A DNA stretch of 64,000 nucleotides from Amoebophrya sp. A120 (GCA_905178155.1 CAJINV010000003.1:8538799-8602798); one strand, 5' to 3'; shown: positions 9,601-63,907, counted from the stretch's first letter. Numbers and translations are program-made. The notes: generated from the sequence alone by a model not told the origin.

Positions 9601-9790
9601 GGGCGCGGCGGTGTCCATTCTGATACAACTGCCCCCATCGATATTAGGTTTCCATGCACGGCAGGATTCCACGCAACCTTTTGGAAAGGTGCGTTCGCAG
9701 GCTGTTGCCAGGGTCCAGCCGTATATCCGCCGACCTGTGCAGTCGATGTTTTTGGTTTGTTAAAAATACGGCCTCGGAGGTAGAAGTAAT
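6700..9790 (-). CDS. Hypothetical multi-exon protein(s), partly Cys-rich; boundaries approximate
   Basis: Protein-like minus-strand ORF segments at 9573-9790, 8590-8979, 7980-8165, 7010-7350 and 6770-6920 separated by AT-rich spacers. No family recognised. Confidence 0.45.
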
Positions 9791-11229
9791 CACATTCGAT
9801 AAGCACCATCATAATTTCCGAGGGTGGCTACATTTTTTGTACAGTGCCAGTGGTAAAAATGGTAAAGGCCTTCGAAGAACTTCGTCGATATATTATCGGC
9901 CAGCAAGTAGAACCGAGCCGAGTAGATTAGTTTGCTATTGCGTAAGTTTGTACCTGTACGGCAGGGTCCTGAACGGTCTCTTGCGGCCCCCAGGTCCGGT
10001 ACTGGAGAATGCCCTCCGGGTAAAACAAGCCGAGAACCATAGCCGCGAGGCCAAACAGACTGAAGAGCCAGTACTTGAGAACGCCCTTGCCGCTCCAGTA
10101 CGATGGCAGCTCTTCCTATGGAAGCGAAAATAAGCTCTGCCCCAGGGTCAGATCGTAGCGGGATGCGGGTATGAATGACGTCAGTGCGATTCATTGTGAT
10201 GGGCGTAACTCATACTCAAGAACGAGTCCTGGCTCGTCATGCTTCCGCTGTGTACCAAAATACAACATCGGCCACACCGACGCTTCTGACGACACAGCTT
10301 CTTGTGTTTCCGAATGCAAAAAAACCGCAGCGAACTGATACTGGGGCTTGTTCGACCTTTTTTGGTTTTCATAACTCCACCAGTTCGAGGCCAATCAGCG
10401 CTGGAAAAAAAGCCAGAAAGAAAAACGCACTGATTGCGCCGGAAACGTTGTCCCAGGAAAAACCTCGCGCGTCCACCCCCAGACATGAGCACAAGCGACA
10501 TGAAACAGCTCCTGCAGCACAAGATAAAATTGCCATGGCAGCCTGCCTCGAAGGAACTTTAATTTTATGTACAACCACACCACATAGAGATAGAACTCCA
10601 GCTACTTCATTCTACTACGTAAAATTTTACTCAATATGGCGGGGTCCCTTCGGAATTTTGTGCAAAAAACACTCAAAAGAAGCAAGCTTGTGAGGTTCGT
10701 CGTGTGTTTCTTTTGGTTCAGTCCTCGCATTCTTCATATACAGCCGCGAGGCAATTCATGACATACTTCGTTCTGCCGAGGATGTCTATCCGCATGCTTG
10801 CAAGTCCCGTACCCAGACACGGACACAGAGATCCCACTGCCATCATGTGGGAGTGGTCGCACGGAGGAGGTTTTTGCAGTGATACACGTTATTTAGAAAA
10901 TCCAACTCCCAACCCATAGTCGCGCAAACCACCGCCAATGCCCAGGCTGCGATCACGGGCCCAATCTGTTGTAAATATGTCAATAAACCACGTCTCAACA
11001 TTTTCCTGCCAAGAACAATAAACTCTGGATTGTTTTTCCACGACGGAGGATAAATATCGCAGCTGCAACAACTAGACCGAGTCGACAGTAGCATTCATAA
11101 TTTTCGCAGTTCGTGCCTACACTTTGTGCGGCGAATCCGGATGTAATATATATAAAATCATCTTCATCTGTGACCAAGGGAATATTTGAAAGATCTCGAT
11201 CGAGGAAGGTGGAAGTAAGAGTTGATGTC

Positions 11230-41900: not shown

Positions 41901-44900
41901 GTGTGCGGGCTCGCTTTCTTTTTCCCCCCGCCAATCTTTGGGCGCCCCTTTTTGCTTGGGCGCCCAAAATCGGCGGAAACAGGTGCGCGCAAGGCGCCTC
42001 AGAAAGGCGCCCCTTTTGCCAGCTCCCCTGCGTCATTTTATCAAGCGCGAATCGATAGAATTGGGCTGGGCTAGTTTGCCACCAAAGCCCCGGCCGCTTG
42101 ATCACTGCAAGTCCTATCCTGGTATAGATACTAACTACCTTGGCACAAAAGAGCGCAAGCGTCAGTGTGAGTTTGAGTTTCGGCGTTGGGCTTGGGTTTG
42201 AGTCTCAGCGTTGGGCTTGTGTCTGAGTTTCAAGATGGAGCTTGGGTCTGAGTTTCAGCATTGAGCTTGGGTCTGAGTCTCAGCATTGAGCTTGAGTTTG
42301 AGTCTCAGAGTTGAGCTGTAGTCTCAGCATTGCGCTTGAGTTTGGGTCTCAGCGTTCAGCTTGAGTCTGAGTCTCAACATTCAGCCTGAGTGTCAGTCTC
42401 AGTCTCGACTTCGAGTTTCAGAATCCGCTTGGAGTTTGAGTTTCGCTTTCGAGCGAGCGACTTCAAGACGGCCGGCGGACAAACGAAAGTCGTCCGAGCC
42501 GACGGCCGTCGGACGGCCAAAAGTTGTCTGACGGCCGTCGAACGGCCAAAAGTCGCCCGATGGTCGTCGGACAGCCAAAAATCGCACGACGGCCGTCGGA
42601 CGGCCAGAAGTTGCCCAACGAACGGCCCAAAAGTCGCCCGGCGGCCGTCGGACAGCCAAAAGTCGTCCGACGGCCGTCGGACGGCCCGAAATTGTCCGAC
42701 AGCCAGAAGTCGTCCGCCGGCCAGAAGTTGTCCGACGACCGTCGGACAACCAAAAGTCGTCCGACGGCCGTCGGACGGCCAAAATTCGTCCGGCGGCCCT
42801 CGGGCAGCCAAAAGCTGTCCGACGGCCCAAAAGTCGCCCGAAGGCCGTCGGGCGCCCAAAAGTCGTCCGACGGCTCCGAAGTTGCCCGACGGCCGTCGGA
42901 CAGCCGAGAGTCGTCCGACGGCCGTCGGATACCCAAAAGTCGTCCGACGGCGGTCGGACAACCGAAAGTCATCCGACGGCCGTCGGACAGCCCAAAGTCG
43001 TCCGAAGGCCGTCGGGCCAGCCAATGCCAAAAATCGTCCCGATCGTTCGGGGCCGGGTTGATCAGATTGGGCGCGCCGAAGCCGAGGCAACCAGATCGGG
43101 AACGCTGCAGCCGGGGCGATCAGACTGGGCGCGCCGGAGCCGGGACGACCAGACTTGGCGCGCCGGAAATGGAGCGACCAATCTGGGCGCGCCGGGGCCG
43201 CGACGACCAGGCCACATTGGGCGCGCCGCGGCTTTGTTTTGGGGCCGGCGCTTTTTTCTTTTTGGTTTGCTATCTAGATGATGCTAGCTGGCGTTTGCAT
43301 TTCTTCTGATGCCTACTTCCGGGCGAAGCTGGCTTTGCTAGTTTTCTATGTCAAAAAACGCGCCCGGCCGCTTGAAAACTGCCGGCCGTTCTTCACGGTA
43401 GGTGCCAAAAAAGCCGCTAGGATAAAACGCTCGCGGCCTCACTACATATCAGCGACCGACGGGGGCCAATAAAAAATGCCTATGGAGAAATTGACGCAAA
43501 ACGAAAACGCGAGCGAGTGCAGTGATGGCAACTAGCTACCAAACGAAGCTGATAGAGTAGCTTTCTGTTGATGAAGGTAGAAGCTGCGCGCTGGCGTTAT
43601 ATAGCTCCATCCCATAGCTGAGCTGCAGCAGTTTACTCCTTTTGCTGAGCTGCGGAAGTTAAAATTTTGCGACGGGAAAGAGAACGGCCCGCGTCGAGTT
43701 TTTTTTTGCATGTAGCTACGTACAATTTTTTTTGGAAGGTGGCGGCGTCACGTTTTGACATTTTTGGAATCGCGTTCACTCATGGAATCACGTTAACGGA
43801 ATCACGTTTGCGACGGAATCGCGTTTGTCTAATCGAGTTGAGAGAGTGAAACAACTCAGACGCCGAAATGCCCACAACGCACCTAAACGAACGCCGGGCG
43901 GACCCAGCGGTCCGCCGGGACCAATGACGCGCCCCGCCGGCCAAGGCGCTGGCCAACGGGAGCCAGGAGAACCCCAGGCAAGCGGCAGAAAAACCGCGCA
44001 GGCCGGCAGGGTGCGGGGCCACCACCTCCCAAGAACGAGAGGAGAGAGTCGTCGGCCAGGGCAGCCGACCAGAAACCCCAAACCCTACACCCTAAACCCA
44101 AGCCCGAACGCAGCTAAGCTGATTCCATCAACTTGATTCCGCTCTAAACGTGATTCCAACTTGAAAACGTGATTCCGCTTCCAACCATTTTTTTTTGCAT
44201 GTAATTACAAACGTTTTTGCTTCAGCTATCCACCCAGGCCTCCGGCAGGGTCGGGCCCGCGTCCTGAGTTCAGGCTTCCGGCAGGGTCGGTTCCGCATCC
44301 TGAGCAGCTTTTTTTGAGGGCCGACCCTACAAATTCCGAATAACCCGGCTTCGGTATCGGTAGTAGTTGACTATATGACATGGCGCGGCTTGAGATGTTT
44401 GGTTGCTCCTGAGAGTCTGGGGCTCTTGTCACTCCTTGACCAAGGGCCTCCAGCAAAGGACCTTCAGAACCCAGAAAAAAAAACAGCAAAACTTCGAGCA
44501 AATTTGACGACGACCCGGTGAAAAATCCCGGAAGTTTTGCACATTGCACGGCATGGCGGGCGAGGTTTCTTGCGAGGCATATTTGTGACAGGTGACAAAT
44601 CTGCAAACCCTTGCATTTTGCACGGTATGGTGGACGATTGCGCGTTGGCCAAAAAATCTTGTAGCGCATCATAAATTTTTGGTCCGTGCGCAATCGTCCA
44701 CCACACAGCGCAAAATGCAAAACTCGTGGGATTTCTTGTCGCCGGTTCCTGCTTTGGGCTCTCAAAGTCCACCATACCGAGCAAAATGCGCGATTTTTAA
44801 GATTTGCCACCGGGCCATCGTCAAACTTGCTCAAAGCTTTGCTTTTTTTTTTTGGGTTGTGGACGTCCTTTGCTGGAGGCCTTTGAAAGGGAGTGATAGG

Positions 44901-47900
44901 TGCCAGACATTCTCAGGAGCAACCCGACATGACGAGCCGCACTATCCCGATCGTCCGTGGCCGGAAACCGGGTCGCTGAAGTGGTAGAGGACAGCCTCCC
45001 ACGCAAGGACCTTCTGGGGCCGTGGTTTTGGTCTGTGTAGCAGCAGTGCCGTTCTGGGACATTTCTGGACCAACTTCAAGTTCAACATGCTGGATTAGCA
45101 TGCTTGAAATATTGCAGGTAGCTTGCCGCATTCGCAACATGAACATTTGGCTTTTGGCAATTCGGCAGAAATGCATACTCATAGGAAACCCATCAAAAGC
45201 CAATTTTTTTGCTCAAAATGAATACCAATACGCCAAAACGGTGACGGTGACAAATTTTCCCTGAATACGGCCTATTTGCGAAAAGCGCTCTGGCTCCTCA
45301 CTTTTCCTTCTGATTTCGTCTCTGATTTCGGTAAGATCTGGCTGCTTCGTAGTTTCGCCTCCGATGTTGATCATTTTCTTTTCCTTCTCTGCGCTAGGAG
45401 CAAGATGACTTAATTTATTCCACAAGAAGGAGAAGCCCAAGCCCAACCTAGATTCCCCATCTTTGCTTGTGTCAACGGAACTGCTAGAGCTATCTGTGCC
45501 AAGTCTTTGTTCTCGTCGTTCTTCGGGCAACTTGAACAAGTCGTCGTAAGGGATGAAGCGCAGGTCCTCCTCTATCTGTTTAACAATTTCTTTCCTGTTT
45601 TCCTTCGCCTTCTCCTCGTCCTCGTCGTCTTTGGGCTCTAAGTTCATGTCGCGCAGCGCTTGCTCGCATGCTTCAGCTTTTTCATGGGGTGTTGGTGTAG
45701 CATCATGAGCGGCATCAGCACCAGCAGCATATGTTGGGCCACCAGGAGCAGTAGGAGCACGGCCGGAAGGGTTGCAGTCGCCAGGTTCCCAGGCATCGCC
45801 CACGAATTTTCGAGGACGATCCAACAGCTCTGCTTCTACTTTTTTTTCTTGCTCGTTACGCTCCTCTTTATTACTATTAGCAGGTTCTCCTCCAAGGGGA
45901 AACACTGTAAATTTTGGAAGTGCGACTGCCTCGGAACACGAACCGAGACCGCGGAAAAATCGCTTCGTGTTCAAGTCTCGTGGTGTTATTGAATCGAGCC
46001 AGTTCTTCGCTTCTTTCAATGTGCCATGACAGTAGAGTTGTTTATCCGCATCCCGTGTCTCTATGATCTCCTTCTCCTGCTCCTTGTTCAGGATCTTCAG
46101 CACTGTGTGCGTCTCGAGCGCGGTTCCTCGCCGTTCACGCCTTGGATCGTCTGCGGGCGGATCTCTGATCAATAGCTCATCCCGCAATCGCGGCTCGCCC
46201 AACTCAGCGTGTGGTTGTAGTGTGTTCTTGACCGGGACGTGTATTGCTGCGCGGCTGTGTAACCTCGCCTTTGTAGCTGTCCACAGCGGAGGATCTTTGT
46301 AGGACCTCCATTTGCAGCCAAGGACTTCAGGCGTTGGATCAGGTGGAATAGCAACCCGCTTGGCCTTTCCTTGAGTAAAAGGTCGCCGCCATTTGTTCTT
46401 GCTTCGGTAGTCACGCAATGCGGTTGTCTTGTGTCCGCTTCGTGTTTGCGGTCGAAGAAAATCAGCCCTGCGATCTTCCCGAAGAGGGTCTGGTGAAATG
46501 GAGAGAGCTGGATCATCAGGTGTATCGAACCGATCGAAAACTAGCGCTGCTCCAGGATCGCTTGTTTGGGCGGCTGCTCTCCCGCCAGGCCGCCCGTCTA
46601 CCCGCCCGGTGCAATGCAATGCAATATGGTGCGCAATCCACGCATTGCACAAGCGGGCATATCGGTGCACGTTGATCTTAGGGCGGAAAAGTCGGCAAAT
46701 CGCATCATTTTTGACAGCGCACTTTTTGGGGGGGCAAAAAAATTGTGGCTGTTGGGGGTATCAACACTGCTTTTTTTCCTGTTGGCCATGTAGCCGCTGG
46801 CGCCACTCTTCGTTGTCACGGTCCGCCATCCGACCCTCCCCTTTTTCCAATAGAAGCGCAGTACTTTGTTGAAGTTGCACAGGCCTGCGGCTCTCCGGCG
46901 CGGGAAGCCGCGCCCCCTCTCCCGCATCCAATTCCGTACGCGCCCAGACATCTTCTCGTCTCCCCTCTGCGGCCGGACGTTGAAAATGCGGACGCGCCAA
47001 CAATCAAGTGCTTCCGGGGGGGGTGCCGAAGGGGGGGGGGTAAGGGGGTCCGCTTGGGCTACCGTTGGGCTACCATTTTGGGACCTGCCAAGTCAGCAGT
47101 TTCCAATGGGGATTTGGGGGTCGGCATAGGCTACCGAAAGGGTACCCGGAGGGGGTACCCGGAAGGGGTGTCCGAAGGGGGCAAAAATGCCCCCCCCCTG
47201 ACCACCCCCCTTGCCGGGCCTTCTTTTCCGGGCGACGGGCCTCGTCGAGCCCCGGTCACGGAGGCGGCCCGGCCACTGTTCGAAGAGCGGGCCCACGACA
47301 CAGCGCCCGGCCATCTGGACGACAACGCACAGAGCGAAGGCGTTGTGGCCTGCTTCTGGTCTTGGTGTTGCGACATTTCCAAAGCTCAGCTACCATGTTT
47401 CCTGTGGAAAAGATCAAGTGACATGCGAGGCGTGTCGGCTTCCAAGATGTTGCGCCCCCAACAAAAAAACTTTTTTTACCCCCCCAATAAGTGCGCTGGC
47501 AAAAATGATGCGATTTGCCGATTTTTCCGCCCTAATGATCTGTGGGACCAAATCAAATTGGTAACGCTTAACTTGAGCGTGCAGGGCTTCTTGGTGTTTT
47601 TTCGGTGCGTGGCTCGAGGCCTCCTCCTCCTGGCGAGATGGGTTGAACGGCACCTCGCATGGACTCAGAGGTAGCTTGTCCACTAGAACTGGAGTTGACC
47701 ACGGGTTGTTAAAATTCTTCTCGTCATGCTTGCTCTGACTCTGAGCACCATCCGCCGCGCTGCTGCCGTCTACTAGGCTCCGGAGGGCGAACGCGTCAGA
47801 GTACACCCTTCTACCATAATTCAAGTCGCTGTCACTTTCACCTTCACCTTGTTTGGATTTTCGTTTTCCACCTTCGAAAACGGTGAAAAAATAATTACTC

Positions 47901-49420: not shown

Positions 49421-50052
49421 TAGTAATCAGCCAGCGCAGTATCCGGTTGGTAACGCACTCCGGTGCGTCTCGTTTGTAGTTTAGGTTTTCTTTCCTTTCC
49501 AATTTAAACTAGCACAGCGGTGCCTGTAGCAGGGTGCTTAGAGGTTATGTTCCAGGTTTTGCTTTGCTAAAGCATGCAAGCCGTAATAGTTTCCCGTGAA
49601 GAAGCTAATGCATCTGTGGCGTTGATCTTGATGTGCAGATTGGTCGGTCAAGCATGAATTTGCAATGCATATTCCGACCATTTCGCGACGCGGCAGCTTC
49701 TCCTCTTCCCTTTTCGTGATCGCGCCCAACATTTGGCGAGCGGCAGAGGAGTCTACGGCTATTCTACGAGCTAGATCAGAGCTATTCTGTATGGCGAAAA
49801 GATTTCCGGGGCCTTTGATCTTGCTGGTGCTTTGATCTTCAGGGTGATCCGTTGACCAAGTTGCGACGCTAGTGCTCATCTACGGCATATTTGGGCTTTG
49901 CGGAATCGATCACGGCTATGGCTTGTTTGTCTTGCTAATCACGACCGGTGGACGGCAACGCGTGCTCCACCTCAAAAGTAAGACGATAAAGCTATGGACT
50001 TGTTCTGTTCCCACCAATCTTGGGGCGGTCGGGGAAGCAAGTGATCACCGTG

Positions 50053-53000
50053 CTACGGAACCAAAATGGAAGATTTACCCATCCTGCTGGCGACGGTGAA
50101 GCTCCATGCTGCATGCTGGCCAAAGTCTTCTAAGCTCAATCGCTCACCTTCCATCTTCTTCGAAATGGACGTCAGGGTCTGAGGTGCCGTGCTACCTGAC
50201 GACCTTGCAAGGGTGCTGAAAAAGCCACCCCAGCAAAGCTCTCCTATCTTCTCCTCGCGTGCTTTCCCGTTCTTGTTTGTTCTTGCTTGCACCTTTGACA
50301 CCGGGCCCTTTTGTCCGTCGTCGTCCACGTAATGAAGAGGCTGCACGCCAGGACGGTGATGAAAGGGCAAATCCGCAAACTCTGCCTTTAGATGGTTCCA
50401 CAAGAATTGCCCTTCAGATGGGCCTCCAACCTCAGCCCGTTCGTCACCGGTAACTGGATCGTATTGAAGGTCGGGAGCAGCAAAACTATACGCCTTATTG
50501 CGACTCCGAGTCCTCAAACCATCGAAGTTAGCCTCTCGAAGCCGCGGCTCCGTGGACATCCATGGATAAGGCGTTAGCAGAGAGCTATCTTCAACGCCAG
50601 AGCCTTGCGTTTTTTTCTGCAGAAAAAGGCTGGCGCCGAGGTTCTGAAGACAGAACCGCTTCCAGATGGTCCGGGGGAAACCGTCACGGCGGTCCATGAC
50701 CGACCCGGTGTCTCCTGGTCCCTCTTCATCTTCGTCGTCTTTTTGCCAAGTAAGCACTGGCCCCTCGTCTTCGTCAGTGCCTTCCATAGAATTGTCATCG
50801 GACTTTGGCTTAATGGGGTTGCCCTCCTCCACCACATATGGGAACTCTTCCCGGATAGACGTAGCAGGACTGTTCGAGCCCGAGCGGAAAACTGCGGCAA
50901 CAAGCACATCAAGCCAGTTCAATGCTGCCCGTCCATCCAGAAGGTGATACTCGTGGTCCTCTCTGTCGTCGTAGGCTTCATCCGTGTCGTCCCCCGCCTT
51001 CCGAGCAATCCAACGCTCTGCCTGCATTGGGTTAATAAATCTCCTTAGCCGAGGCTCCGGCAGTGCGGAGGGGCGCTGAGCCCCACGCGTAAAAATCGCC
51101 TGCAGTGTCGGGTCGGTAAGAATTTGGCGCCCGCCCACCTTCTTTGCGTTAGCGTCTTCGCTTTTGGGGTACATGGTAACCCAAAACGGGGCCTCGCTAT
51201 CGTCGCCCGATGCCGGTGCAACTGTTCCGCCGGTGAAAGTTGCCTCTTCGTCACCGTCCCCAGCCGGCCATGCTTTAGAGCTTAGACATCCGTTGGAATC
51301 TTAGTGGGTGACTTTGCGGCAATATTAGGGGACTTGCGTCAAGCAGCACCCGTGAAAACGCTGGCGCGCTCGCCCCCAGGAGACAAATCCCGGGCACAAA
51401 TGAAGACGAGAAAGAAAAATCAGACATCAACGGAAGAGGAGGCTCCAAAGAAGCCACCATACCTTTGGCATTCTTGACGCAGTTTTTCCTTTATTGAAAA
51501 GACGCAGGCTCCAGTCGCGAGGGGCTGCAAAATTTTTCACTGGTAATCTTGCAGCAAGTGCTCCTTTTTTCCCAACCGTACTTGGTGCGGCCAAGTCGGC
51601 CACCCCTGCTTTCGGACATTTATCACGCGGAAGTCGTTGGCTTTGACTGTGATTTTGTGGCGATTTTACGGCTAGGGCTACCTTCCAGGTTTAGACGTTC
51701 TAGTCCGAATGCTATGACCAATATTTTGGCGATCAAATTTGACGCCATAAAAGGAACATTTTATCGGCTGCAAAATCGTTCGCAATTTCTTGCTGTGCTA
51801 CGTTTTACGCGAAAGCCGCAACATGCGAGTTCGCACGAATAGAGACGGCGGTGGCAGTGCGAACTTTCTTGCCTGTCATATTTTGTAGCCGTCACGCACA
51901 AAAAAAATGAGAAACAAAACTAGAAGCGCAATCGAAGCGCCAAAGAAGCAATCGCATCCGGCTACTTCGCTGGCGCCCATTGCGTCACCGTACGCGCTGC
52001 CTCTTGCGCAGTGCGTCCCAACAATGGCAAGGTTGAAAGTACAAAAACAAAAAGAAATAAATATAAAGCGCGCCTCACGAAAGTTGCTGAGCATGATGCT
52101 GCAGAGGCAAGCGCGCGCCAAGCTGCCCATGCAATGGAAACAGTCGCACACCCCCAAGGCGGGCAAATAAACGAACAAAAACAACCGAGCTTTTTCAATA
52201 TTGCAGAAAAATCACCACGCTAATACCTAACGTCTGTCCAGGCTGTAGCAGGTGATGCTCTTGCTTGCGGCGGGTGCACCACTTTGTTAAATTTTTCTAT
52301 GAAGTCTCTCTGTTCCCCGTCGCGCGGTGGTGGAACCCATACAAACCCATCCTGATGTATTGCGTCCAGTGTGCCGCGCGGTAGCTGCTGTCCTACGAGT
52401 TTGGGCGAGCTGAAGAGCGACGCCGCGACTTTCTTTGTAAAGCGGGTATCCGTGTTCCGCGTCACGACCCACATCGACTCCCCAGGCGTGCTGTCACCAG
52501 CGGACGTGGTTATTTCGAGGCCATCGTCTAAAACAGCAGAGTTTTCTGCAATTTGTTCACCAACCACTGTCTTTATCACGCCAAACCAAGCCAGCCCGTT
52601 GATAAAGATCATCATTAGGTCGAACACATCCTGAGAAACACACAGACACGACAATCCTACTGTGGGAGTTCCCTTCTTGCTTGTATCTCTTTATTTCTGT
52701 GCTCGACGACCTGTCCTAGACTTTTGGCCGCGAGCGTTGTGCCCGTGAGCTTCTTGTGTTCATTTCAAAGTATCAAGCGTTATCATGTTGGACCAAAGAT
52801 GTACACCGGCAAACCGGCGCACATTTTGCGGAGCCGAAGGTGAAGCGCCGGCGAACCTCCTACCGGGGTGTAGATGCCGCAGACCCAGACCTCACTGGGG
52901 ATGGGCTGCGTACACACTCCCCTCACAGGCAGAAGGCTCACGCCCGGTCGGCTTCCCTCTCCTCCGGCGGCTGCCGGCAAACCGGCGCACATTCTCAATT

Positions 53001-56000
53001 TGCACGGAGCGAAGCCCCGCGCGCCTGGCAGAGTTTGCGTTCACCGCTTGTGCTCCTCGAAACTCCGGGCCAACGCAGTTTGCGCCCACCTAAAGGAGGA
53101 CGCTCGGAACAGGTCGCCGAACACCTTCCCTGGCAGAGCAGGGTCACCCTTTCGGGTGAACGGGTTCACACTTCCTTTTCTTGGCCGCGTGTCTCGCACG
53201 CTGCTTGTCCGCCAAATGCTGCCGTCGTCCTGTGCTCTCCAGCATCTCCCGAGCGCCCTTGTACACTAGCCAAGGGATCCGCCCTGGCTCCAGCTCCTGC
53301 ACCGAGGTCGGGAGCGCTTGCTGCAGCGCAGCTATCTTCTCTAAGCGTGTCAGTGGATCGCTTAGGTTGCGAGCGCTGGCAATCCACGCCCAGCAAATGT
53401 CTCGACCAGCTGTGTCCTTGTGCAGTTGATGGAGAAGGATCTGCGACGCGAAGTTGCCGCATGAACCCTTCACGATGCTATAGCACTCGGCCGCGTTGTC
53501 GACGTGATGCACCACTAACGCGTCGCCGGGGGCGAGGTCCGCGGCGAAGAACAGATGCGCCACATGCGCGCAAAGGGTCTCGAAGAACGCGATGTCCGGC
53601 TTCAGGTGCGCCACCCAGGACGGCAACTCCTGCACGTGGAACGTGAAACCATGCCCGCGCGAGTGGTCTGCGTTCAGCATCAGCGCGCCAATGTAGATGC
53701 CGCGCGCTCGCGTGCAATACCGCCCCGGCCTCGACGGCTTCGCTTTTGTGAAGTCGTCCAAAGACGCGTCGCCATACACATGGATAACCCGGGATGGAAA
53801 CCCCTTGCGGATTATCTTTGGCCGAAGGCTACCTGCCTGCAGCTGCAAAAGGAGGACCGTCTCAAGCAGCTGTCTGCGTTCTCTTGGGTCCTTGATGCGC
53901 CTACTGAGCTTGTCGCTGCGCCAAACATCAAGACCCCGCACAACACCAACAGCACCTGCATCGAGCTGCGCGCAGTGTTGGAAGAGCCCTCGCACGGTCT
54001 CGACAGCCTCCCTAGTGGCACCGCGACGCCGTATTGCACCCAGTAAGCCGGACAGAAGCTCCTGGAGGTGCGCGACCTTCTCAGCCGCGGGGGCGACCGA
54101 CAGATACTGCTCGCACCTTGAACGTGTATAAGCCAGCCCGAGCGCCACCAGGCTCCGCTGCTGGATGTCCCTTTCGCCCCCGGACGGCAGGTAGTTACGG
54201 TCTTGCTTGGCCGCCTGCTGCGGAAAGCCACACAACGATAAAAACAGATCGACAAGAGCCGAGCTATGTGGCATACTTTTCACCCTATCCATGAGATGGA
54301 TATCATCTATGTACACTGGTGCCAGTTTGCGTAGAATACAAACCAGCACCAGCATGATAGCCCCTGAGCAGGCGACATCCTCATACACGGACACTATGCT
54401 ACCGAAAACTGTCACCAGGCTCTCGATGACGTCCCAACGCCGCGCCGCGGTCTTTCGCTTCTGGGGGACCAACCCGCTTGCGAAGGCTTCCTCCTCCTCC
54501 GCCGTGAGCCTGGGGACGACGAACACGCTTTTCGTCCTGTCCGCTACTGCGAAGTTGTAATAATAGGACTCCACGTCCTTCGTCTCGCTTGCTGGGATGA
54601 AACTGGACGCCACGTCCCTCTCAAGCATCTCAAGATCGGGATCGTCTTCAAACACAGAGGGCGGGGCGGGCTCGTAGCACGGCCGACCTGCGACGCCCGC
54701 GTCGCGCACCTCCTTCAAGAAAGTGCGCTCGTCGAAAATGTCCTGCGTGACGTCTCTTTTGCACTGGAACAAGGTGACGGGCCGAACGTTGCTACTCGCC
54801 AGCCGCGTCACGATCTCGCACGATGCGCGACCCCCCAAGAGCCTCATCCTCTCTCGAACTTTGACGCAGGCATTGTGCCTGCGCAGGTCAATGCAGAGGC
54901 GCGCTCTGTTCTTCTGCTTCACCGGGAAGCAGACAGCAGGCCGGGACTTTGCCTGCTCGACCTTGACCCACTTGCCCGTAGCCAACATCTTGGCCGCCTG
55001 GCGTTGCATCTCCTTGATGTCCCCAGGCTCGGCCCATGTGTCCGCGGGTATCTTGCGCGCCTCTTCAGCGCTGAATATCTCCGCTCTCTTTTGTTCCTGG
55101 GCCTCGTCACGATGGGGGAGGCCAATGTCATCCGCAACCGATACCCAAAGGCCCGAGGGGTCTATGTCCTCGTCGGTTTTGAAACCGGCGACGATCTTCT
55201 CTCGCAGCCCGAGAACCTTCCGCCTGCGCTCGGGCGAGAGGCTCGCGACGTCGCAAGCCCGGGCCAATAACCGAAGGAAGAAGGCCCACTGCTTATCTTT
55301 GTACACGAACCGAACATCTGCAGACATCTGCGCGAGCAGAGCCCCATTTTCCTGAGCTGAATCCGAATGGACTTGCAGTAGCCACCCTGCTAGCCGCTGG
55401 GTCGCGACGTTTATCTCATCGGCGGAAGAGCTCTTCACCTCGTCGATGACTGGCAAAAAGAAATCCGGAAGGACATCCCGGCGCCCGTATGTCCGCGCAG
55501 TATCGCGCTGCACCACCGCCCCCAGCGGGTTTCCCGGCCTACTATGGTCCTCGGCGCCCATTCGCGATAGATAGACTTCTAGATAGACTACGCGCAAAAG
55601 GAGAAAGAGCGCTTCGCTTGTTAAGGTTGGTAGGCCGGGCAGAAATCAATGTAAACAAAATCAAAACACAATCAAAAACACAAAGCAAGGGAATCAATAT
55701 GCTCAGAGGTCGCTGTGTGTCATATCATTCGAAAAGCAAATCAACCCACATCCCGGACCTACCAAATCAACCTCACCTCGTCCCGGCTTCTGCGACGCCC
55801 ATCTTCCTTACCCAACTGCGCCGAGACTGAACACGGCCCGAGGCCTTTGAACCGAACAAGCACAAGAGGGAGCCGCCCGCTGCGGATAGCAACTGAAAGG
55901 GCCTCCACCCTTGGCCTTCATCCTTGATGTACACAGCAACGGCATTCATCTTGATTGGACAGTAAAACGCTACCGGTTCCGCACAAAATTACATCGAGCG

Positions 56001-59000
56001 CGAGCACTGAGTGGCCAAACAGCTGGCAAGCTCAGTCGTTTCAACATTCATCATCGTGTGTTCTTGAGTGAGTGGTCTCTCCCGTCTGCAAAACATCTCC
56101 CCGAATCGAGTCGATGCGGCAAACCGGCGCACATTTTCGACCACCGTGCTGGCGTGTGATTCTTGTGGACGAGGTCCGGCAAACCTGCGCACATTTTGGA
56201 AGGACTCGTCGAGGGACTGGCGGAGGCGCACCTCCGGGACAGCATGCACCAGGCTTGCGGGGCATGCCCGGCAAACCAGCGCACATTCCTGACACGATGA
56301 GTTCCTGAGTGATATGATATCTACCGAAGTCATGGAGACGACAGTTTTCCTGAGTTACAGACGGCGGACCTAAGGCTCGGTCGCTTTCTCCTTCAAATGG
56401 CCCTCCGACAATCCGAAGCCCTTGCTCTTGTTGATGTACTGCATGAGACTCAAGCTCCCGCCATGCTTAAGCTTGCAGGCAGCTGCCGCCATAGGAGCAG
56501 GAGCCCTTCAAGTACAGCTCGCAGATCATGTCCCTCGCCTGCTTCTTGTTCGCCGGGGCGCCCGCGTCGCCACCCCCGGGACGCTTGTTCCCCAGGGCTT
56601 TCAACTTCTGCTCGAACCGCGCCTCCAACTTGGACAGCTTGGCATCCGTCGCGTCGTCGGCCTTCTTCAACAACAGCGAGCTCTTCACCTCGGTCTTGAG
56701 TCCGACGGTCAAAGCCATCCGGATGCGCCACTGGTACTGCTGCCCGGCCGCCACCCCGGCGGGGGCGGGCGCCATCACGCGAAAGGCACTCTCAGCGGAA
56801 TCCCACCAGATCTTGAACACGGCGGCCTTACCGTCGCCGGACTCATGTCCCTTGCCCATCGCCTGCGTCGTGATGAACGTGTGCGCAGCAGTCATGTGGT
56901 CCATCAGTATGGCCCCGATCGAGAGCAGGCAGGACACGAAGATGAAGGGCGTGAAGTCGGGCTCCTTCTTCACAACTGTGATGCACTTGGCTAAGGTTTC
57001 CGCCTCATAGTGGCGGCGCACCTTCGTGACCTGCTGGAAGTTGGGCTTGTACTCCTCGGGGACGTCCGCCACGGAGTTGTTGAAGGCCTGGATCTGGGCC
57101 GGGGTAGCCGGAACCGCGATGCCCGCGTCCGCGAACAACCCGGCAAGGCCCTGCGCGAGCGCCTGACTAGCGGCCATCCTGTTTTGTTCTGCTGTGATAA
57201 AAGTAGTGAACTACGGGTAGAATGCGATGAGGGATGCGAATTCTCGCTCCTAAGACTAAACGCTGAAACTGTTGCGACGCGCTGTCGTCGTGAGTCCTGT
57301 CACTGTTGCGAATTTTTGGTGCGGAACAATGTAACGAACTACCCGGCCAAGCCGCGGCGCGCGGTGCGCGGGGGAGCATTGATCGCGAAGAGTGTGTATT
57401 CGTTGAACTGTCTCAAATTTTTATCAATCATTTCCATCAGGGCGCAGTCTGATCTCAATCGTTGGAGGTGCATTTGCTCGCGAGATGATCATCATTGTAG
57501 CAGAGACGCTTGCACGAGTGGCCAGGGCAAAGCAAATTGCTCTGTCACATTCACTGCACGATTGCCCTCGTAGCGTAACTCTGTATCAATGTTCTTCCAC
57601 CTTCCGACCTGCGCGATCTCCTCCCGTGGCAGGCCTCCCTGCGCAGCGGCAGACGCTCCTCCGACCCTGAAGGAGTAGAGGTTCCACAGCTTCCGCCCGT
57701 CCTGCTTCTCCTCCATGTCGCACCGGCGGACTACCTCTTCCATGCATTTTCGCAAATGCGCGCCCGGTGCTGCGGCGTAGCCGGCCCACGCGTTATCCTC
57801 TATCGCATGAACCGGACAGAGCACCCGCCCAAGGCCCAAGGGCTGAACGGCACTGCAGCAGCAACGCATTCGGGCGTGCCAGCCTCGCTCATACTGGTCT
57901 ACTTTGGATTTACTGACAAATGAGTGGACGCGCCACTCCCCGCCCGCCTTGTAGACCTCCCGGGAGGTGTTCCTGAACTCATCGGGCCGCTGAAACAAAA
58001 ACCAGGCGGAGACGCAGAAGTCCAGAAAGACGCCGAGGTCGTAGGTCTTGCCCTTGGTAACGGCGAAAGGGGCCGCGCCTGACTTGATGGCGTCCACTTT
58101 CTTCCAAAATGACAGCAGGGCGGGATGCTGCTGCACCTGTATGACCCCCTTTTGCAGCTGCGTGAAGCAGCGGCTGTAGTCCTTCTGCTCTGCGTCGGTC
58201 AGTGGCCTGACGCAAGACATGCGGGCCTTGACATGTGCGAGCATGATGTGCCGCGACTTTGGGATGTTGTCACACCGCGCCAAGGCCGCGGCCGTGGCCT
58301 TGATCCTTTCGGAGCTCCAGGGCTCCGCTGGGTCCCACTTGAAGTGGGAGCAGATGGGTTGACAATACGTCTCGAACGCCTTCTGCTGCTGCTTCTTCGT
58401 CGCCGCGGAGAGTTTCTGGCCCTCGAACTCCTGGGCCAGTTCCTCAACTGCTGCCGGGTTCGCACTTAGTCCGGCGAGAACGTCGCCGATCTTCCCCGGC
58501 AAACCGGCGGATCTTCCCCGGCAAACCGGCGCACATTTTCTGGTGACTATCTCCGGCTACTGCCTTCTTCTCCTCCCGGACGAACCTCCGCTTCTTGGCG
58601 GGCTCATGCGGGTGACCCTTATCGCTGCCCAGCGGCGGGTCGCTAGATTCCTGAGGGCCGGCGCCCTGGCATTCCTGAGGTTCGCGCACGTCGACATCGC
58701 AGCCGAAGAGGACGTCGGCCCCGGCTCCGATCATCGCAAGGTAATCCGCGTCCATTTTTCTTTCCGTAGTTCTGGCTTTGCACAGCTTGAAAAAAAAATT
58801 CTTGGGCCCTTGCACTATGTTGAACTGCAACACCTGTACGGCTGTCCCTTGCCTATGGCTATGATCATCAACGAGCGCGGGATCTGGTCTACCTAATGAT
58901 ATCCATTATCACGCCAAACCAAGCCAGCCCGTTGATAAAGATCGTCATTAGGTCGAACACATCCTGAGAAACACACAGACACGACAATCCTACTGTGGGA

Positions 59001-62000
59001 GTTCCCTTCTTGCTTGTATCTCTTTATTTCTGTGCTCGGCGACCTGTCCTAGACTTTTGGCCGCGAGCGTTGTGCCCGTGAGCTTCTTGTGTTCATTTCA
59101 AAGTATCAAGCGTTATCATGTTGGACCAAAGATGTACACCGGCAAACCGGCGCACATTTTGCGGAGCCGAAGGTGAAGCGCCGGCGAACCTCCTACCGGG
59201 GTGTAGATGCCGCAGACCCAGACCTCACTGGGGATGGGCTGCGTACACACTCCCCTCACAGGCAGAAGGCTCACGCCCGGTCGGCTTCCCTCTCCTCCGG
59301 CGGCTGCCGGCAAACCGGCGCACATTCTCAATTTGCACGGAGCGAAGCCCCGCGCGCCTGGCAGAGTTTGCGTTCACCTCTTGTGCTCCTCGAAACTCCG
59401 GGCCAACGCAGTTTGCGCCCACCTAAAGGAGGACGCTCGGAACAGGTCGCCGAACACCTTCCCTGGCAGAGCAGGGTCACCCTTTCGGGTGAACGGGTTC
59501 ACACTTCCTTTTCTTGGCCGCGTGTCTCGCACGCTGCTTGTCCGCCAAATGCTGCCGTCGTCCTGTGCTCTCCAGCATCTCCCGAGNCCTTGCACTATGT
59601 TGAACTGCAACACCTGTACGGCTGTCCCTTGCCTATGGCTATGATCATCAACGAGCGCGGGATCTGGTCTACCTAATGATATTGATTTTGTCGGCGCCGA
59701 AGTGGTCGCGACGAGTGGGGATGTCGTCCCACCTCGCAGAATACGTCGAGTCTTGGTCGAGGTATCTACTTACTTCCATTCCAGTTCCTGAAAGCGGTAT
59801 GTCATCCGTGAAGTACGAATCGAAATCCGGCGAGAGCCGTAGCCCGGCGTACGCTGCGTTCACAATCGGAGGAGAAATCGCTATTTGGCGAAAGTCAAAC
59901 AGTTCCCCAGGAAAACGAGAAATCGGGGCAGCTTTTGCCAAGAAGTACCCGGCTGCAATTTTGTTTCGCCTACTTTTCGCCTCTTTTGCAGCCAAGGGGC
60001 GATGCAAAGAGGCCGGGTTTCTTTTCTCAGTTGCCTGGTGGAGGTCGAGGTCGGTCTCGATGCCCCGTCTTTGACTTTGGGCGTCCTCGACCATCTGCTC
60101 GTTTATTTCCGCTTCTATTGCTCTTCTGCTTGGCTTTGGCCAGCGCAAATTTGGAGAGCCAATTTGAATTTGTGCGGTCGGCCAGCGCAAATTTGGAGAG
60201 CCAATCTGTTCCGGCGTGTACACGCGGCCTTCCTCTTCGGCCTCACGGTCACGAAAGTTACCGATTCGCTCCCCCGCGCCAAGCAGCTTGTTCAGCTCCG
60301 CCAACACTTCAATCTCGTCGTTTGCGTGTGTCGGGAACCGGTTGGCGCGGCGGTTCTCGTCAACTTCCTTCAGCGGTATCTGGTGAAGAGGTTCTCGGAC
60401 ATGCGCATCCCACATCATGTGTTCCTGGTCCATCGTGTTTCTGCTTTTGGGCGAATCGGCTCCCCCGATATTTGGCGACAGCTTTTTCGCAAAATGCAAA
60501 CCAATTTGACGCTGTGCCGCCCACCGTATCTGATCTCTGTGCGCGTCCTACTCCGATGAACTCGCCCCCCACCCCCAAAACACTATTGTTATTTGGGTGA
60601 TCCAAAAAGCACACGTCGGGGGTTCAAATAGTTCCTTTTTTGGTGACCAAGTAACGCGTTTTTTTGTTTACGTGCCTCACGCTCTCCTGGACCTGAGGGC
60701 ATTGGCTTCTAAAATAGCGCAGCGCTTGACCTCAAAACCCTTGGTATTTCGGCGACAAAGTGCTGTCGGTATCTGCTTGGTCGCAGAGGATTTCGGCAGC
60801 GAGAACAGGACCGGGGTCGTCTTGGTAAGGTTCTTGGAGTAGTACTAGGCACCCGGCTGGGGAGGAAGCGCGCGCCGGCCGGTGGTTCACAAAGAGGTAG
60901 ACGGGCATGAAGTTTCCGTGCGCGTAACTTTATACACCAAGGCACGCCTCAGCTTTTTGGTGGAGTAGTTGGAACAAAACAGCTGGCGCCAGCGCCACAC
61001 TTAATTATTGGAATGAATTTTGCTGATCTACTCCAGCGCAGGAGAAGACATCTCGCGCGAAACTTCATACACCTTGGTATACTGCAGTCAGCGACGCAAC
61101 TTTTTTCGTCTTTTGTAGCCATCATGCTGCACAAGCAGATATAATGTCGGCGCTTCGCGTTCGGCAACCCGGATTACACTCGCCGGCGGCCCGGCGCAGA
61201 TTTTTGGCGCGTTCCACATCGAACACACCATGCGGATTAGCGATCAAAAGGCGCTCGCCGAAGTCATCGGCTTTGCATATTAATTACGGATAGGCTTTTC
61301 TTGCCGGTAAAATAACGGCTTTTTTGGCGGCTGCAAATCCATGTACTATCCGATTTGCGGCCCATGCACATGCAAAACAAAAACAGCCGGGGCATATAGT
61401 TTGCTGCATGAATGCAGCTAAAGATGACCAAAACTCCTGCTACTTTATGCCGTGGCATAGAACGCCACGCGCCGCATTATGATGCACTTTCCGCGGAGGA
61501 GGTGTAATAGATAACGCGCCAAAGATCTTCGCGAGCTTTCTAAATTTGAAGAAGCCTCCGCTCACGGCTGACAGCATGGCAAACGTGGCGCGGGCCCGAT
61601 GGTTCGGGGCGATGTATTTGGCGACGTGGTTGGATCGTGTTCTCTCATAAAGATTTACCACCCCTACTTATCTCCTATTGCTTTGCCAGGCACAGCATGC
61701 GTTTCTGCGGCGCCCCACGTCCTCTCGCTGTCGGGCATCTCCGCGACCAAATGCCGCGACTTTGTCGAAATGTTGAAGCAGCCTCTGCAGCCAAGCAGTG
61801 CGCTACTTGTACTTGGTGAGCAGATAGCGAAGCAATTGTGTATTTTCTGATCAAAATAAGGCGCGTCACTTGCTTACCAAAAGGCGCGCGTTTTCTTTTT
61901 GGTTGTTTAGTTATCCAATCCAAGAACGAAGCGAGCCCATTTGGCGTATGTCGGCGGTCCTCCCGGCAAGTCCACAGGACGCAGGCCCCGGCCCACCAAG

Positions 62001-63907
62001 GCGGAGCCGCAGCCGAGGAGAACCCAGCACAGAGAGCGGATGAACCTCGGAACAGGAGGGCCAGCCGACGAGCGCCAAAGAGGCGACAGCGCGGAAGTAA
62101 GATGTTAAATCGCAATTATAGAAGGCGTTGCGGAAGCCGCAAGGCAACGTCACAAGCGTGACGCGAATAGCAACAAAATGCTGCAGTAGCCAAAGCTGGC
62201 TAGTGTCACAAGCGTGACGTCACAAGCGTGACGTCACAAGCGTGACAAAAACTAGCAACAAAGATGTTGCAGGAGCCAAAGGAGCTGGCGGGCCAAAGCT
62301 GCCGGTGTCACAAGCGTGGCGTCACAAGCGTGACATGAGTAGGCAAAACTGCCAAGCGAGCAAAGCTGCTCAATAGCTGCGAAAAAAGCAGGAAAATCAA
62401 AAAGCTTTGACCTTCCATCGCGCGCCCGCTGCCCGATTCATGCATGTATTGGATCCAGCTAACTAAATAGCTCCCGCGCCAAGGCTCGAGCGACGCTCAC
62501 AGGCTCGTTTACTCTTTCCTTGCTGCGTATGCATTTTAAAAAGGGCATGTGCTTGGGTGGGACATAACACGGGCGTTTTGGGGGGGGTGGGGGGCGAGTT
62601 CATTGGCGTACGTCCGAGTTGATGTCGTAGTGCTTCGTCTTTGCCACTTTGGTGCGGCTGTCGCCGTCATTGTAGTTGCCAGATAGTTTGTTCTGCGTTT
62701 CGACATTGTCGGGCTCTATTGCCTTGACGCGGGGGTACAGACGGTTTTCGTCGTAGGCCTATGGGGGGAAAGCTGGGAAATGTTTCGCACCTATATCGTG
62801 CTAGCTCGCACGGCAGACCGTGCTAGGTATTACGAGATAGGCATGAAGCGCTTGCACTACTTTATTTTTCGTTGATACGTAACTGCGGTCCGCTGGAAAT
62901 GGTACGTGGCTGTCGCCACTATCGCCGAGCGGTGTGATGCCGTGTGCCTCTCTGCTCGCGAAATTACGGACGACGTGGCTGCAATACTGCTTGAGTTCGG
63001 CGTTGGGACATGTGCGGATGTCAGTTTTGCGCACGTACGTGCGTGCGAAGCGACTTTGTGAGATTGGCGCTTGCGCGCGCGCCGAGATTTTTGCGAGGAG
63101 AGCGCATGCATGCTTCCTGTTTTGGAAAGTGCGCGCTCGCGCGAAGAGTCTGTCCGGAGCGCACGCCACGCGTGCAACACTTAGTCTGCGATCGGGCGCA
63201 CGATCCTGCGATCTTGCACGTTTGCGATCGCAAGCGCGCACGGGAGCTCTGTTCGGACCGCGCGCGCGCGCAAGGCTTGGTCTGCGGTCGCACGCTCGAT
63301 CCTGCGATCTCGCGACCTTGATTGCGACTGCAAGATCGCAAGCGCGCGCGCAAGGCTTGGCTTGCGATCGCCGCGTGCGCGCGGGCCTACGACTTTGCGA
63401 TCGCGCAAACGTCTGCGCGTGCGCGTTCGCGCGCAAGCGCAAATCGCGCAAAGTTGCACGCACGCACTAGCACGCACGCAAAACTCACAGGACATCCAAA
63501 TTTTTTTGGGGCATACAAAAATTTTCCGGTGTCAAAATTTCATAATCGGGCAGTTCCAGTTCCTGTGGCCCTTTGCGCTCCTTGAAGACATATGTGTAGC
63601 CATCTATCATACGGTACCCGGTTTGTTGCCTTTTATCATCCTCCTGGTCCTGACCACCACCACCCATCCTGCGTCGATCTGTAACTACCTGCGACAGAGA
63701 ACCACTTTGCTCGACCCAACGGTCGCCGCTCTGAGTTTCCACTGCATCTGGAAGCTGGCTCTGCCAAGCGGTATAGAAGCCTGTGCCACTCAACAAAGTT
63801 CCGCCGAGAATCAATCGGTGGCTGTCGTCGACTTTTTGTTCTTGCGCATCCGGGTGGAGCCAGCCCTTGCCCTCATCTATGAATGGACAAGTTGATGTTC
63901 GCGACAT
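50053..63907 (-). CDS. Large orphan gene or pseudogene hosting the YR retroelement and three further insertions; structure partly inferred
   Basis: ORF blocks 63546-63907, 62612-62759, 59683-60544, 52220-52569 and 50053-51299. In-frame joins DINSD-AHRDQ and GADKI-TVVGEQ are clear. Two other joins leave an in-frame TAG. Confidence 0.55.
51491..52201 (-). mobile_element. 711-bp introner-like insertion
   Basis: Arms ttattgaaaa / ttttcaatat (9 of 10 inverted match). Confidence 0.5.
52600..52631 (+). other. Internal complementary region (ICR)-like copy of the element's end-to-end junction
   Basis: TGATAAAGA-TC-ATCATTAGGTCGAACACATCC versus the minus-strand junction TGATAAAGA-AT-ATCATTAGGTAGACCAGATCC: 27 of 32 identical, same spacing. 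Confidence 0.8.
53144..55597 (-). CDS. Reverse transcriptase + RNase H (DIRS-like pol)
   Basis: RT motifs RLCIDLRRHN, KDVESYYYNF, VFG and YIDD. RNase H motifs VYGDAS, IAFFETL, HHVDN and WIASARNLSDPLTR. No DDE integrase, protease or methyltransferase seen. Confidence 0.92.
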   Translation of the reverse strand: MRVVYLEVYLSRMGAEDHSRPGNPLGAVVQRDTARTYGRRDVLPDFFLPVIDEVKSSSADEINVATQRLAGWLLQVHSDSAQENGALLAQMSADVRFVYKDKQWAFFLRLLARACDVASLSPERRRKVLGLREKIVAGFKTDEDIDPSGLWVSVADDIGLPHRDEAQEQKRAEIFSAEEARKIPADTWAEPGDIKEMQRQAAKMLATGKWVKVEQAKSRPAVCFPVKQKNRARLCIDLRRHNACVKVRERMRLLGGRASCEIVTRLASSNVRPVTLFQCKRDVTQDIFDERTFLKEVRDAGVAGRPCYEPAPPSVFEDDPDLEMLERDVASSFIPASETKDVESYYYNFAVADRTKSVFVVPRLTAEEEEAFASGLVPQKRKTAARRWDVIESLVTVFGSIVSVYEDVACSGAIMLVLVCILRKLAPVYIDDIHLMDRVKSMPHSSALVDLFLSLCGFPQQAAKQDRNYLPSGGERDIQQRSLVALGLAYTRSRCEQYLSVAPAAEKVAHLQELLSGLLGAIRRRGATREAVETVRGLFQHCAQLDAGAVGVVRGLDVWRSDKLSRRIKDPRERRQLLETVLLLQLQAGSLRPKIIRKGFPSRVIHVYGDASLDDFTKAKPSRPGRYCTRARGIYIGALMLNADHSRGHGFTFHVQELPSWVAHLKPDIAFFETLCAHVAHLFFAADLAPGDALVVHHVDNAAECYSIVKGSCGNFASQILLHQLHKDTAGRDICWAWIASARNLSDPLTRLEKIAALQQALPTSVQELEPGRIPWLVYKGAREMLESTGRRQHLADKQRARHAAKKRKCEPVHPKG
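56370..57177 (-). pseudogene. Gag-like protein with C-terminal CCCH zinc finger, frameshifted by a 4-bp duplication
   Basis: The ORF ends CELYLKGSCSYGGSC-LQA*. Deleting one copy of gcag-gcag (56475-56482) gives C-x7-C-x5-C-x3-H (CELYLKGSCSYGGSCKLKH), continuing to a stop at 56370. Confidence 0.8.
57492..58755 (-). CDS. Tyrosine recombinase (DIRS-like); 5' part frameshifted by a 22-bp tandem duplication
   Basis: QRPDEF (R), SKSKVDQ (K), CPVHA, YSFRVGGASAAA, GRW and LRYEG (Y). Deleting one 22-mer at 58488-58531 fuses the upstream MDADYL... ORF in frame. Confidence 0.9.
58906..59682 (-). mobile_element. Second, head-to-tail copy of the YR element, collapsed at an assembly gap (N at 59587)
   Basis: 58906-59586 repeats 52573-53253 with at least 3 substitutions. 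59588-59682 repeats 58808-58902. Confidence 0.75.
60548..62611 (-). mobile_element. 2064-bp TIR element with GTC direct repeat; reads GT...AG on the minus strand
   Basis: gtc|ctactccgatgaactcgccccccacccccaaaac ... gttttggggggggtggggggcgagttcattggcgtac|gtc. Removal joins DINSD-AHRDQ in frame. Confidence 0.85.
62149..62334. repeat. Six copies of the quasi-palindromic 14-mer GTCACAAGCGTGAC
   Basis: Copies at 62149, 62205, 62219, 62233, 62307 (1 mismatch) and 62321. Confidence 0.85.
62793..63545 (-). other. Intron/insertion rich in GCGC and TGCGATC repeats
   Basis: Separates ORF blocks. Arms atatcg / tcataa. Low-complexity gcgcgc and tgcgatc array at 63060-63480. Confidence 0.5.

Follow-up and report, generated by a model that had tools for sequence, protein, structure and literature searches.

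The insertion, its genes and its probable tandem structure

The stretch of DNA analysed here, hereafter the window, comprises 64,000 nt of the genome of Amoebophrya sp. A120 (GCA_905178155.1, CAJINV010000003.1:8538799-8602798). On its minus strand, at 59682-52570, lies an insertion that interrupts a host reading frame and encodes a putative tyrosine recombinase (YR) together with a reverse transcriptase (RT). Its first bases are ATATCA (from 59682) and its last are TGATAA (to 52573) plus an AGA tail (52572-52570). The original prediction, which placed the element at 52570..59685, had recognised both ends and the 3-nt tail; only its start coordinate needs moving to 59682. Both termini are of the inverted TAT...ATA, non-GT-AG type found in the non-canonical introns of this genome, and the chance of both fitting the intron core, estimated from motif frequency, is ~3e-5. 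The 5′ boundary, starting ATATCA, opens the first 95 nt of a first unit (59682-59588), in which 59681-59643 form the 5′ side of a terminal stem, and the 3′ side of the stem, the TGATAA end and the AGA tail, which leaves with the intron, occupy 52615-52570. Upstream, the host exon (60547-59683, minus strand) is an open frame for a protein of no known family, and a search for a longer homologue of this protein found none; downstream, the host exon (52569-52227, minus strand) probably ends 3′ at a GT donor. The flanks of the insertion agree at only 2/5 positions, meaning that at this one site there is no target duplication, nor the 3–5-nt direct repeat that borders Amoebophrya introner elements.

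All genes of the element lie on the minus strand, in the order YR, gag-like, RT. The YR gene (58755-57492) runs in two frames, split by a 22-nt tandem duplication at ~58488-58531, with the catalytic part at 58556-57492. Its product is 47-51% identical to three proteins of Amoebophrya sp. AT5.2; against Cre it matches weakly over the catalytic C-terminus (E 0.044-0.064), where Arg, Trp and Tyr align, and its Atlas look-alikes include Phage_integrase clusters at 0.97. From its sequence, the enzyme is likely to be a divergent tyrosine recombinase rather than a DDE integrase. The second open reading frame (ORF), at 57177-56467, ends in a CCCH-type knuckle (weak zf_CCCH_4 match, E 0.07) and is called gag-like because of its position; homologues of its product were sought and none was found. 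It is cut short by a 4-nt duplication near 56475, which is absent from a contig of depth 42 in the DNA sequencing run X1 that represents a sister copy. The third gene (55561-53144) encodes an intact RT/RNase H of 805 aa with a YIDD motif, supported by 115 relatives, their alignment and a structural model (predicted local distance difference test, pLDDT, 81.6). The model matches the RTs of cauliflower mosaic virus, HIV, Moloney murine leukaemia virus and Ty3 at E values of 3e-10 to 3e-7, and by this structural prediction the protein is an RT of the long terminal repeat (LTR) type with RNase H. A weak RVT_1 match was found in 8/51 scanned relatives, and among the Atlas look-alikes of the RT are clusters with few recorded members, mostly from Euglenozoa or Perkinsozoa. 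A 2OG-Fe(II) oxygenase domain occurs in three distant relatives of its N-terminal part (P0049, P0054 and P0057).

The best YR and RT matches in AT5.2 are the gene models g19904 and g19906, and another AT5.2 model contains a YR-like part followed by an RT-like part, so the YR-RT order is likely to be conserved in that strain. Together with the TAT-type intron ends, these matches suggest for the window an Amoebophrya origin of A120-like character (PMC7789003). Scans for related loci gave little: with the YR alignment, 0/272 metagenome stretches were useful, and viral contigs (0/39) and prokaryote genomes (0/36 and 0/48) likewise yielded none, while with the RT alignment a single distant locus emerged among 145 metagenome stretches (L001, RT 22% identical). 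This locus (4522-14710) is a distant YR retroelement with the order gag-like, RT, YR, truncated by the contig end. Pfam found nothing significant in 14 other ORFs of the window. The element had been proposed to be autonomous, a description that does not hold for the assembled unit, which carries two frameshifts (in YR and in the gag-like ORF).

As assembled, the locus measures 7.1 kb and has the layout A-N-B-TGG-A-ORFs-B. The single N at 59587 is an assembly gap that, by depth arithmetic, likely hides ~5.55 kb, the interior of sister unit 1. The last 681 nt of this unit (59586-58906, minus strand) end in TGATAA and show 3 mismatches against the end of unit 2. Unit 2 (58902-52573, minus strand) is a complete YR retroelement of 6,330 nt that lacks LTRs, split direct repeats and an internal complementary region, and self-comparison revealed no repeat >30 nt inside a single unit. 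Between the two units, the head-to-tail joint (58911-58897, minus strand) consists of inverted TGATA/TATCA arms around a 5-nt core, with the 3-nt spacer TGG at 58905-58903; it folds as a 32-pair hairpin (z -3.85) and is a likely YR site. The joint of arm, 3 nt and arm that had been predicted for circular copies of the element is thus already present, in the same layout, within the window.

In X1, depth is 87.7 at the exact 5′ end and 88-92.6 at the exact 3′ end, against ~44 for one copy. Both X1 contigs that enter the exact 3′ end come from RT-like sequence, with depths summing to 88.3, and the exact 5′ end continues into two YR-region variants (depths 39.9 + 48.6); no contig covers 59587-59652. 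Given ends at two-copy depth and these continuations, two head-to-tail sister units are the simplest path through the locus, and the single N likely conceals the interior of one of them, giving a dimer of ~12.7 kb. If instead the assembly were right as drawn, at 7.1 kb, the A-B-A-ORFs-B layout would be that of a permuted split-direct-repeat element or of a solo AB repeat beside a full copy. The window itself displays this layout, and solo AB repeats (Cafeteria Ngaro) and SIRE/VIPER have been described (PMC8547959, PMC6681497), but three exact copies of an end would then be required (a depth of ~133, where 87.7 and 88 were seen), 59587-59652 is free of contigs, and RT-like sequence precedes both 3′ ends, all of which makes the assembled layout an unlikely one. 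A permuted split-direct-repeat element was our first reading of the locus; it was dropped after depth arithmetic and self-comparison.

The junction cores of the two units differ (TCA, TGG and AGA). As only one of them can belong to the target, two close sisters must have carried different cores. The end of X1 contig 3 at 52600 indirectly implies a further copy with a tail starting AG. One diverged sister, on a 13-kb contig, ends on the same 3′ base, and a second departs to another flank ≤4 nt from the 5′ start, so that 2/2 informative sisters agree on an end. Total depth suggests that the 5′ end is present ~5 times and the 3′ end 6-7 times, giving a family of about 5-7 copies. A motif of ~22 nt occurs six times per unit (at ~59327, 59159, 58538, 56285, 56196, 56136, 52994 and 52826, minus strand); its copy in the YR 5′ region adjoins the frameshifting duplication, and it could be a promoter or a packaging signal.

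Probable removal from the transcript and the predicted terminal stem

The original prediction held that the element might itself be a giant intron and named the junction that its removal would create, 59683|52569. We placed contigs of X1 and of X7, a likely RNA run (its RNA status being guessed) from a different sample, on 58650-60250; X7 gave three contigs. X7 contig 10 (306 nt, depth 4.8) covers 59683-59720 with 38 letters and 0 mismatches, and the 30 displayed letters of its loose end are those of 52540-52569 (30/30) in exon 2. X7 contigs 10 and 11 both match the upstream exon with 0 mismatches. The predicted junction is therefore found exactly, in one X7 contig, and is unlisted for X1, which shows the filled site only: each flank of the filled site is crossed by an X1 contig of unique depth (47508-52600 and 59653-63948), and an empty-site joint is absent both from the four joints listed and from those for 58650-60250. 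X7 has no cover on 58920-59675, where X1 reaches mostly 2-7 times the unique depth over the repeated part, and this blank over a multi-copy region indicates that X7 behaves as RNA; its word share of 52000-59500, 0.03, fits exon 2 alone. The element is, with high probability, removed from the mRNA by splicing at 59683|52569, in agreement with the giant-intron proposal. Farhat et al. analysed introns of 40-1000 nt only (PMC7789003), so an intron of this size falls outside their set.

The claim that removal by the intron rule preserves the reading frame also holds, as the frame of exon 1 runs open into exon 2. We dropped this as evidence of splicing, because any clean insertion into an ORF leaves an open frame.

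Some observations speak against splicing and for an ordinary, unspliced Ngaro/VIPER-like insertion, in which the X7 junction would reflect a sub-lineage or allele with an empty site, and the intron-like look of the ends would come only from YR sites being inverted repeats. The junction is seen in a single contig, at depth 4.8, and the one sample behind it is RNA by guess only and is not the sample used for DNA; runs X8 and X9 have no cover on the host exons; an empty allele or a DNA excision product may have been the source of the junction, since contigs drop rare variants; and the relatives in AT5.2 indicate a family that does not need non-canonical splicing. However, DNA would be expected to include the multi-copy 3′ region that X7 misses, X8 and X1 share the flank of a sister copy at 30/30 letters, which points to the same genotype, and the cut respects the register of the introns, the 3-nt tail being lost too. 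The G·U-rich, strand-biased stem described below also suits RNA rather than a double-stranded YR site. We consider an unspliced insertion improbable. Among the raw-read RNA runs, X4 and X6 placed 0 reads and X5 placed 223 partial reads, all at 49450-49617, and these runs provide no test of splicing. Contig 13 of X9, which aligns at 58855-58906, begins in an unrelated flank and continues into the 5′ end of a sister; this likely-RNA contig places that sister, too, in transcribed sequence, caught unspliced.

The first and last 45 nt of the element are predicted to form a duplex of -37.8 kcal/mol (z -5.1), which none of 300 shuffles equalled, and nowhere in the element do the first 45 nt pair better than with the true 3′ end. 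The resulting stem is ~40 nt long and gapped, with G·U in 6/32 pairs, and the antisense duplex reaches only -24.1 kcal/mol; perfect inversion is limited to TGATA/TATCA around the 5-nt core. Being gapped, G·U-rich and biased to the sense strand, the predicted stem would fit an RNA stem used in splicing better than a long double-stranded YR site. A comparable stem is predicted for 5/5 non-canonical introns of PSMA2 (z -2.2 to -5.9), against an excess in 0/4 of its GT-AG introns, and 4/6 short introns likewise favour pairing of the sense strand. The stem scores of seven introns picked by the census described below are high by construction and were excluded from the evidence.

Comparison with the short non-canonical introns

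The PSMA2 gene (5819-1484, minus strand) served as the reference. Removal of five non-GT-AG introns (5806-5530, 5454-5155, 4041-3811, 2141-1858 and 1797-1545) and four GT-AG introns leaves a continuous 238-aa frame for proteasome alpha-2, and the three arm pairs quoted for this gene (TTATCC/GGATAA, CTATCA/TGATAA and ATATCC/GGATAA) are indeed present. Another intron, which had been given as 39188-39461, can be removed in frame as 39461-39185 (minus strand); its inverted repeat is 15 nt long and its 5-nt direct repeat is perfect. A census of inverted ends 100-600 nt apart, blind to the flanks, returned 33 candidates in the window (18.4 in 20 shuffles), and another census returned 44 (20.2 in shuffles); both sets are motif-based and include background. 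A 5-nt flank repeat matching at 4/5 or 5/5 positions accompanies 11/33 census candidates, compared with 0.25 in shuffles, and 5 nt is the best of seven registers, with a flank identity of 0.53 against 0.21-0.39 for the others. Where introns were defined by the reading frame, 5/6 match at 4-5 of 5 flank positions and 1/6 matches at 1 of 5. On this evidence a short intron is best seen as a TAT...ATA element lying between direct repeats of 5 nt, the rule being that the element plus exactly 5 nt is removed. The pattern N-TATC...GATA-N + 3 nt proposed earlier captured the ends shared with the insertion but not the register, and a 3-nt repeat register for the short introns was rejected in favour of 5 nt. 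A 5-bp example is shown in the supplement of Farhat et al. (PMC7789003).

These shared features raise the question of whether the element mobilises the short introns. According to the original prediction, the YR family does so in trans; in such a model, circles would carry the direct repeat as their core and integrate at matching 5-mers. In favour of it, the ends, the stem and the 5-nt accounting are common to the element and the short introns, one of the six independently defined short introns lacks a repeat, and YR elements have been described with short flanking direct repeats that are recombination cores (PMC3266345, PMC7192593, PMC3212892), so that YR cores can resemble target duplications. 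Against it, the young insertion matches its flanks at 2/5 positions (one site), whereas 5/6 independently defined short introns match at 4-5 of 5; no homology was found between the element and the 25 short-intron candidates of the window (best E 0.048); and a distantly related pair of these, 14028-14497 and 27139-27390 (73% over 67 nt), has different repeats. The numbers are also discordant, with about 5-7 copies of the element and 29,850 repeated introns in A120 (PMC7789003). Kin of both YR and RT (47-51% identity) occur in AT5.2, whose introns are reported as 99.98% canonical (PMC7789003). Mobilisation of the short introns by this family is accordingly improbable, and the view that they are substrates or derivatives of the element is not supported, there being no homology beyond the hexamer, no direct repeat on the element, few copies and relatives in AT5.2. 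To our knowledge, Augustus would not call non-canonical introns of this kind. The AT5.2 gene models were made by Augustus (PMC6482013).

Judging from the repeat analysis, the short introners more likely owe their spread to a DDE enzyme, an integrase or a transposase, whose target duplications are 5 bp long. Of the 58 introner families of A120, Gozashti et al. (2025) finally classed 45 as terminal inverted repeat (TIR) DNA elements, 4 as non-LTR and 9 as unknown, and none as DIRS (PMC12130899), a further point against mobilisation by a YR element. Their family 5 has a DIRS peptide match, yet was classed as TIR, and family 38 is a Ginger-like TIR introner of ~808 bp with integrase-like ORFs, a 5-bp target site duplication and TA/TA termini (PMC12130899), which makes it a DDE-type candidate, in the same genus, for the short introns.

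Two observations on the short elements stand apart. A second TGATA/5-nt/TATCA joint lies at 4349-4363 inside a 614-nt GT-AG intron of PSMA2 (4712-4099) and possibly represents two short elements head to tail within a canonical intron. The short-intron candidates at 14028-14497, 26409-26736 and 27139-27390 have similar arms and weak internal similarity, and are perhaps one old introner family with different 5-nt repeats.

Proposed integration, related systems and a possible retro-intron cycle

Taken together, the locus is best explained, on balance, by a low-copy YR retrotransposon, likely a head-to-tail pair of ~12.7 kb, that interrupts a host exon in the sense direction and is likely spliced out by the non-canonical rule, the short introners having more likely been spread by a DDE enzyme. 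The predicted ~40-nt RNA stem would bring both ends of the element together, as in the short introns. The YR would integrate a circular copy at a site of arm, 5-nt core and arm, probably with no need for full core identity; integration of a circular copy has been modelled for DIRS and Crypton elements (PMC7192593, PMC3212892). Such an integration would add the element plus 5 nt; because the intron rule takes out precisely this length, the host frame would survive and the insertion would be silent. A second copy would later have landed at the end of the first. It is likely that the element shares, or has adapted to, the host splice signal as a stealth device. That one signal serves both recombination and splicing, as had been suggested, is plausible: splicing was observed once, and a role in recombination is suggested by the YR gene, the missing duplication and the joint.

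Several points weigh against this explanation. Only one complete insertion site is known, and the dispensability of core identity rests on n=1. The dimer was deduced from depth and is not spanned by any one read. Pfam found nothing significant in the element's own proteins, and on sequence alone the YR assignment is weak; the first His of the H-x-x-R motif is replaced by Tyr in 4/4 YR sequences, the YR model is poor (pLDDT 44.5) and a fold search with it produced no match at E ≤0.001. The window yielded no DDE element with TAT...ATA ends, and Farhat et al. did not find a transposase in A120 (PMC7789003), the latter also counting in favour of mobilisation of the short introns in trans.

The closest known relatives share some of these features. 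Ngaro, VIPER/TATE, PAT and SymbioDIRS (PMC6681497, PMC8547959, PMC5890265) also combine a YR with an LTR-type RT/RNase H in ~6 kb, are described with no target duplication and have a gag-like ORF, the possible counterpart of the second ORF here. Ngaro, VIPER, PAT and SymbioDIRS have split direct repeats in the arrangement A-ORFs-B-A-B, which the unit described here lacks, the A-B-A layout likely reflecting a dimer (one locus); they also differ from it in that the present element has the order YR, gag-like, RT, the non-canonical splice motif of the host and a long predicted RNA stem. DIRS1-like elements are modelled with a 3-bp circle junction that leaves a trinucleotide at each end (PMC3266345, PMC7192593), which resembles our scheme. 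Three traits of DIRS1 are missing from the present element, namely long inverted repeats, the internal complementary region and the family-fixed NTT trinucleotide; it shows instead the cores TCA, TGG and AGA and an imperfect end stem of ~40 nt. With the non-canonical introns and introners of A25 and A120, the element has in common inverted ends (starting TAT in A120), a terminal hairpin and non-GT-AG removal (PMC7789003). The introns analysed in that study are 40-1000 nt long and are described as having no transposase genes (PMC7789003), while the element spans 7.1 kb in the assembly (likely 12.7 kb), codes for RT and YR, and has no direct repeat.

A general link between YR retrotransposons and introns is already published for the dinoflagellate Polarella glacialis, in which the DIRS-class introner families 3 and 5 are likewise VIPER/Ngaro-like YR retrotransposons that make introns (PMC12130899). 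Unlike the present element, these families use GT/GC/GA-AG sites and have LTRs, family 5 consisting mostly of solo LTRs (PMC12130899). Full-text literature searches returned no coding YR element removed by the non-canonical rule of Amoebophrya and no link between a YR and these introns, and the word 'recombinase' has 0 matches in the text and supplement of Farhat et al. (PMC7789003). Rfam gave 0 matches on the window. Group II introns are similar in outline, being RT-encoding insertions rendered harmless by splicing; they differ from the present element, where splicing is likely host-dependent and integration is likely performed by the YR.

The scheme may be extended, tentatively, to a retro-intron cycle in which the spliced-out intron is itself the transposition RNA. 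Splicing would release a full-length copy with both ends and the 3′ tail of the donor, the ends would be joined into a site of arm, core and arm, RT would copy the molecule and YR would integrate it, which would replace the split repeats by which other YR retrotransposons rebuild their ends. Several features are in keeping with this: the unit is free of LTRs, split repeats and any internal complementary region, yet its RT is intact; the two close sisters have different cores, unlike the family-fixed trinucleotide of DIRS1 (PMC3266345); the excised piece, once circularised, has the layout of the joint at 58911-58897; and nonconventional introns of euglenids leave the transcript as full-length circles (PMC11282704). 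On the other side, circular or back-joined RNA was not seen (no joints are listed, at low depth), a DNA circle excised by the YR with flanking bases would give variable cores just as well, and the missing split repeats rest on one locus and depth arithmetic. We therefore put forward only as a possibility, with the odds against it, a nuclear retro-intron in which a YR retrotransposon has dropped its terminal repeats as host splicing yields the full-length RNA, the YR site formed by the joined ends carrying a few host bases from gene to gene. If true, this would be a group-II-like life cycle assembled from a DIRS-order element and an unknown splicing machine. If these ends were already present in the AT5.2 relatives, the non-canonical splice signal of Amoebophrya would likely have originated as the recombinase site, though we hold such an origin to be improbable.

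The locus bears on how the non-canonical introns of Amoebophrya are removed and how they spread. The intron rule likely acts on stretches of 7 kb or more (likely 12.7 kb), in which case length is not limiting; the splice signal may be just TAT...ATA and the terminal stem, with the element plus 5 nt removed. As a protein-coding substrate with relatives in a strain reported to be free of such introns, the element makes the direction of evolution testable from public genomes, and the locus may reveal how a retrotransposon rebuilds its ends without terminal repeats.

Other repeats occur in the window. At 46760-47535, between two long ORFs, lies a repeat at ~10-25 times unique depth, other copies of which leave at 47535 into different flanks; by eye it does not fit the intron rule. 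The stretch at 49450-49617, the sole one matched by X5 RNA reads (223 reads, 90-95% identity, with a joint skipping 81 nt), has no Rfam match and is a conserved non-coding or repeated piece. Arrays of tandem-like repeats of 25-29 nt and 14 nt are found at 42151-43273 and 62148-63466.

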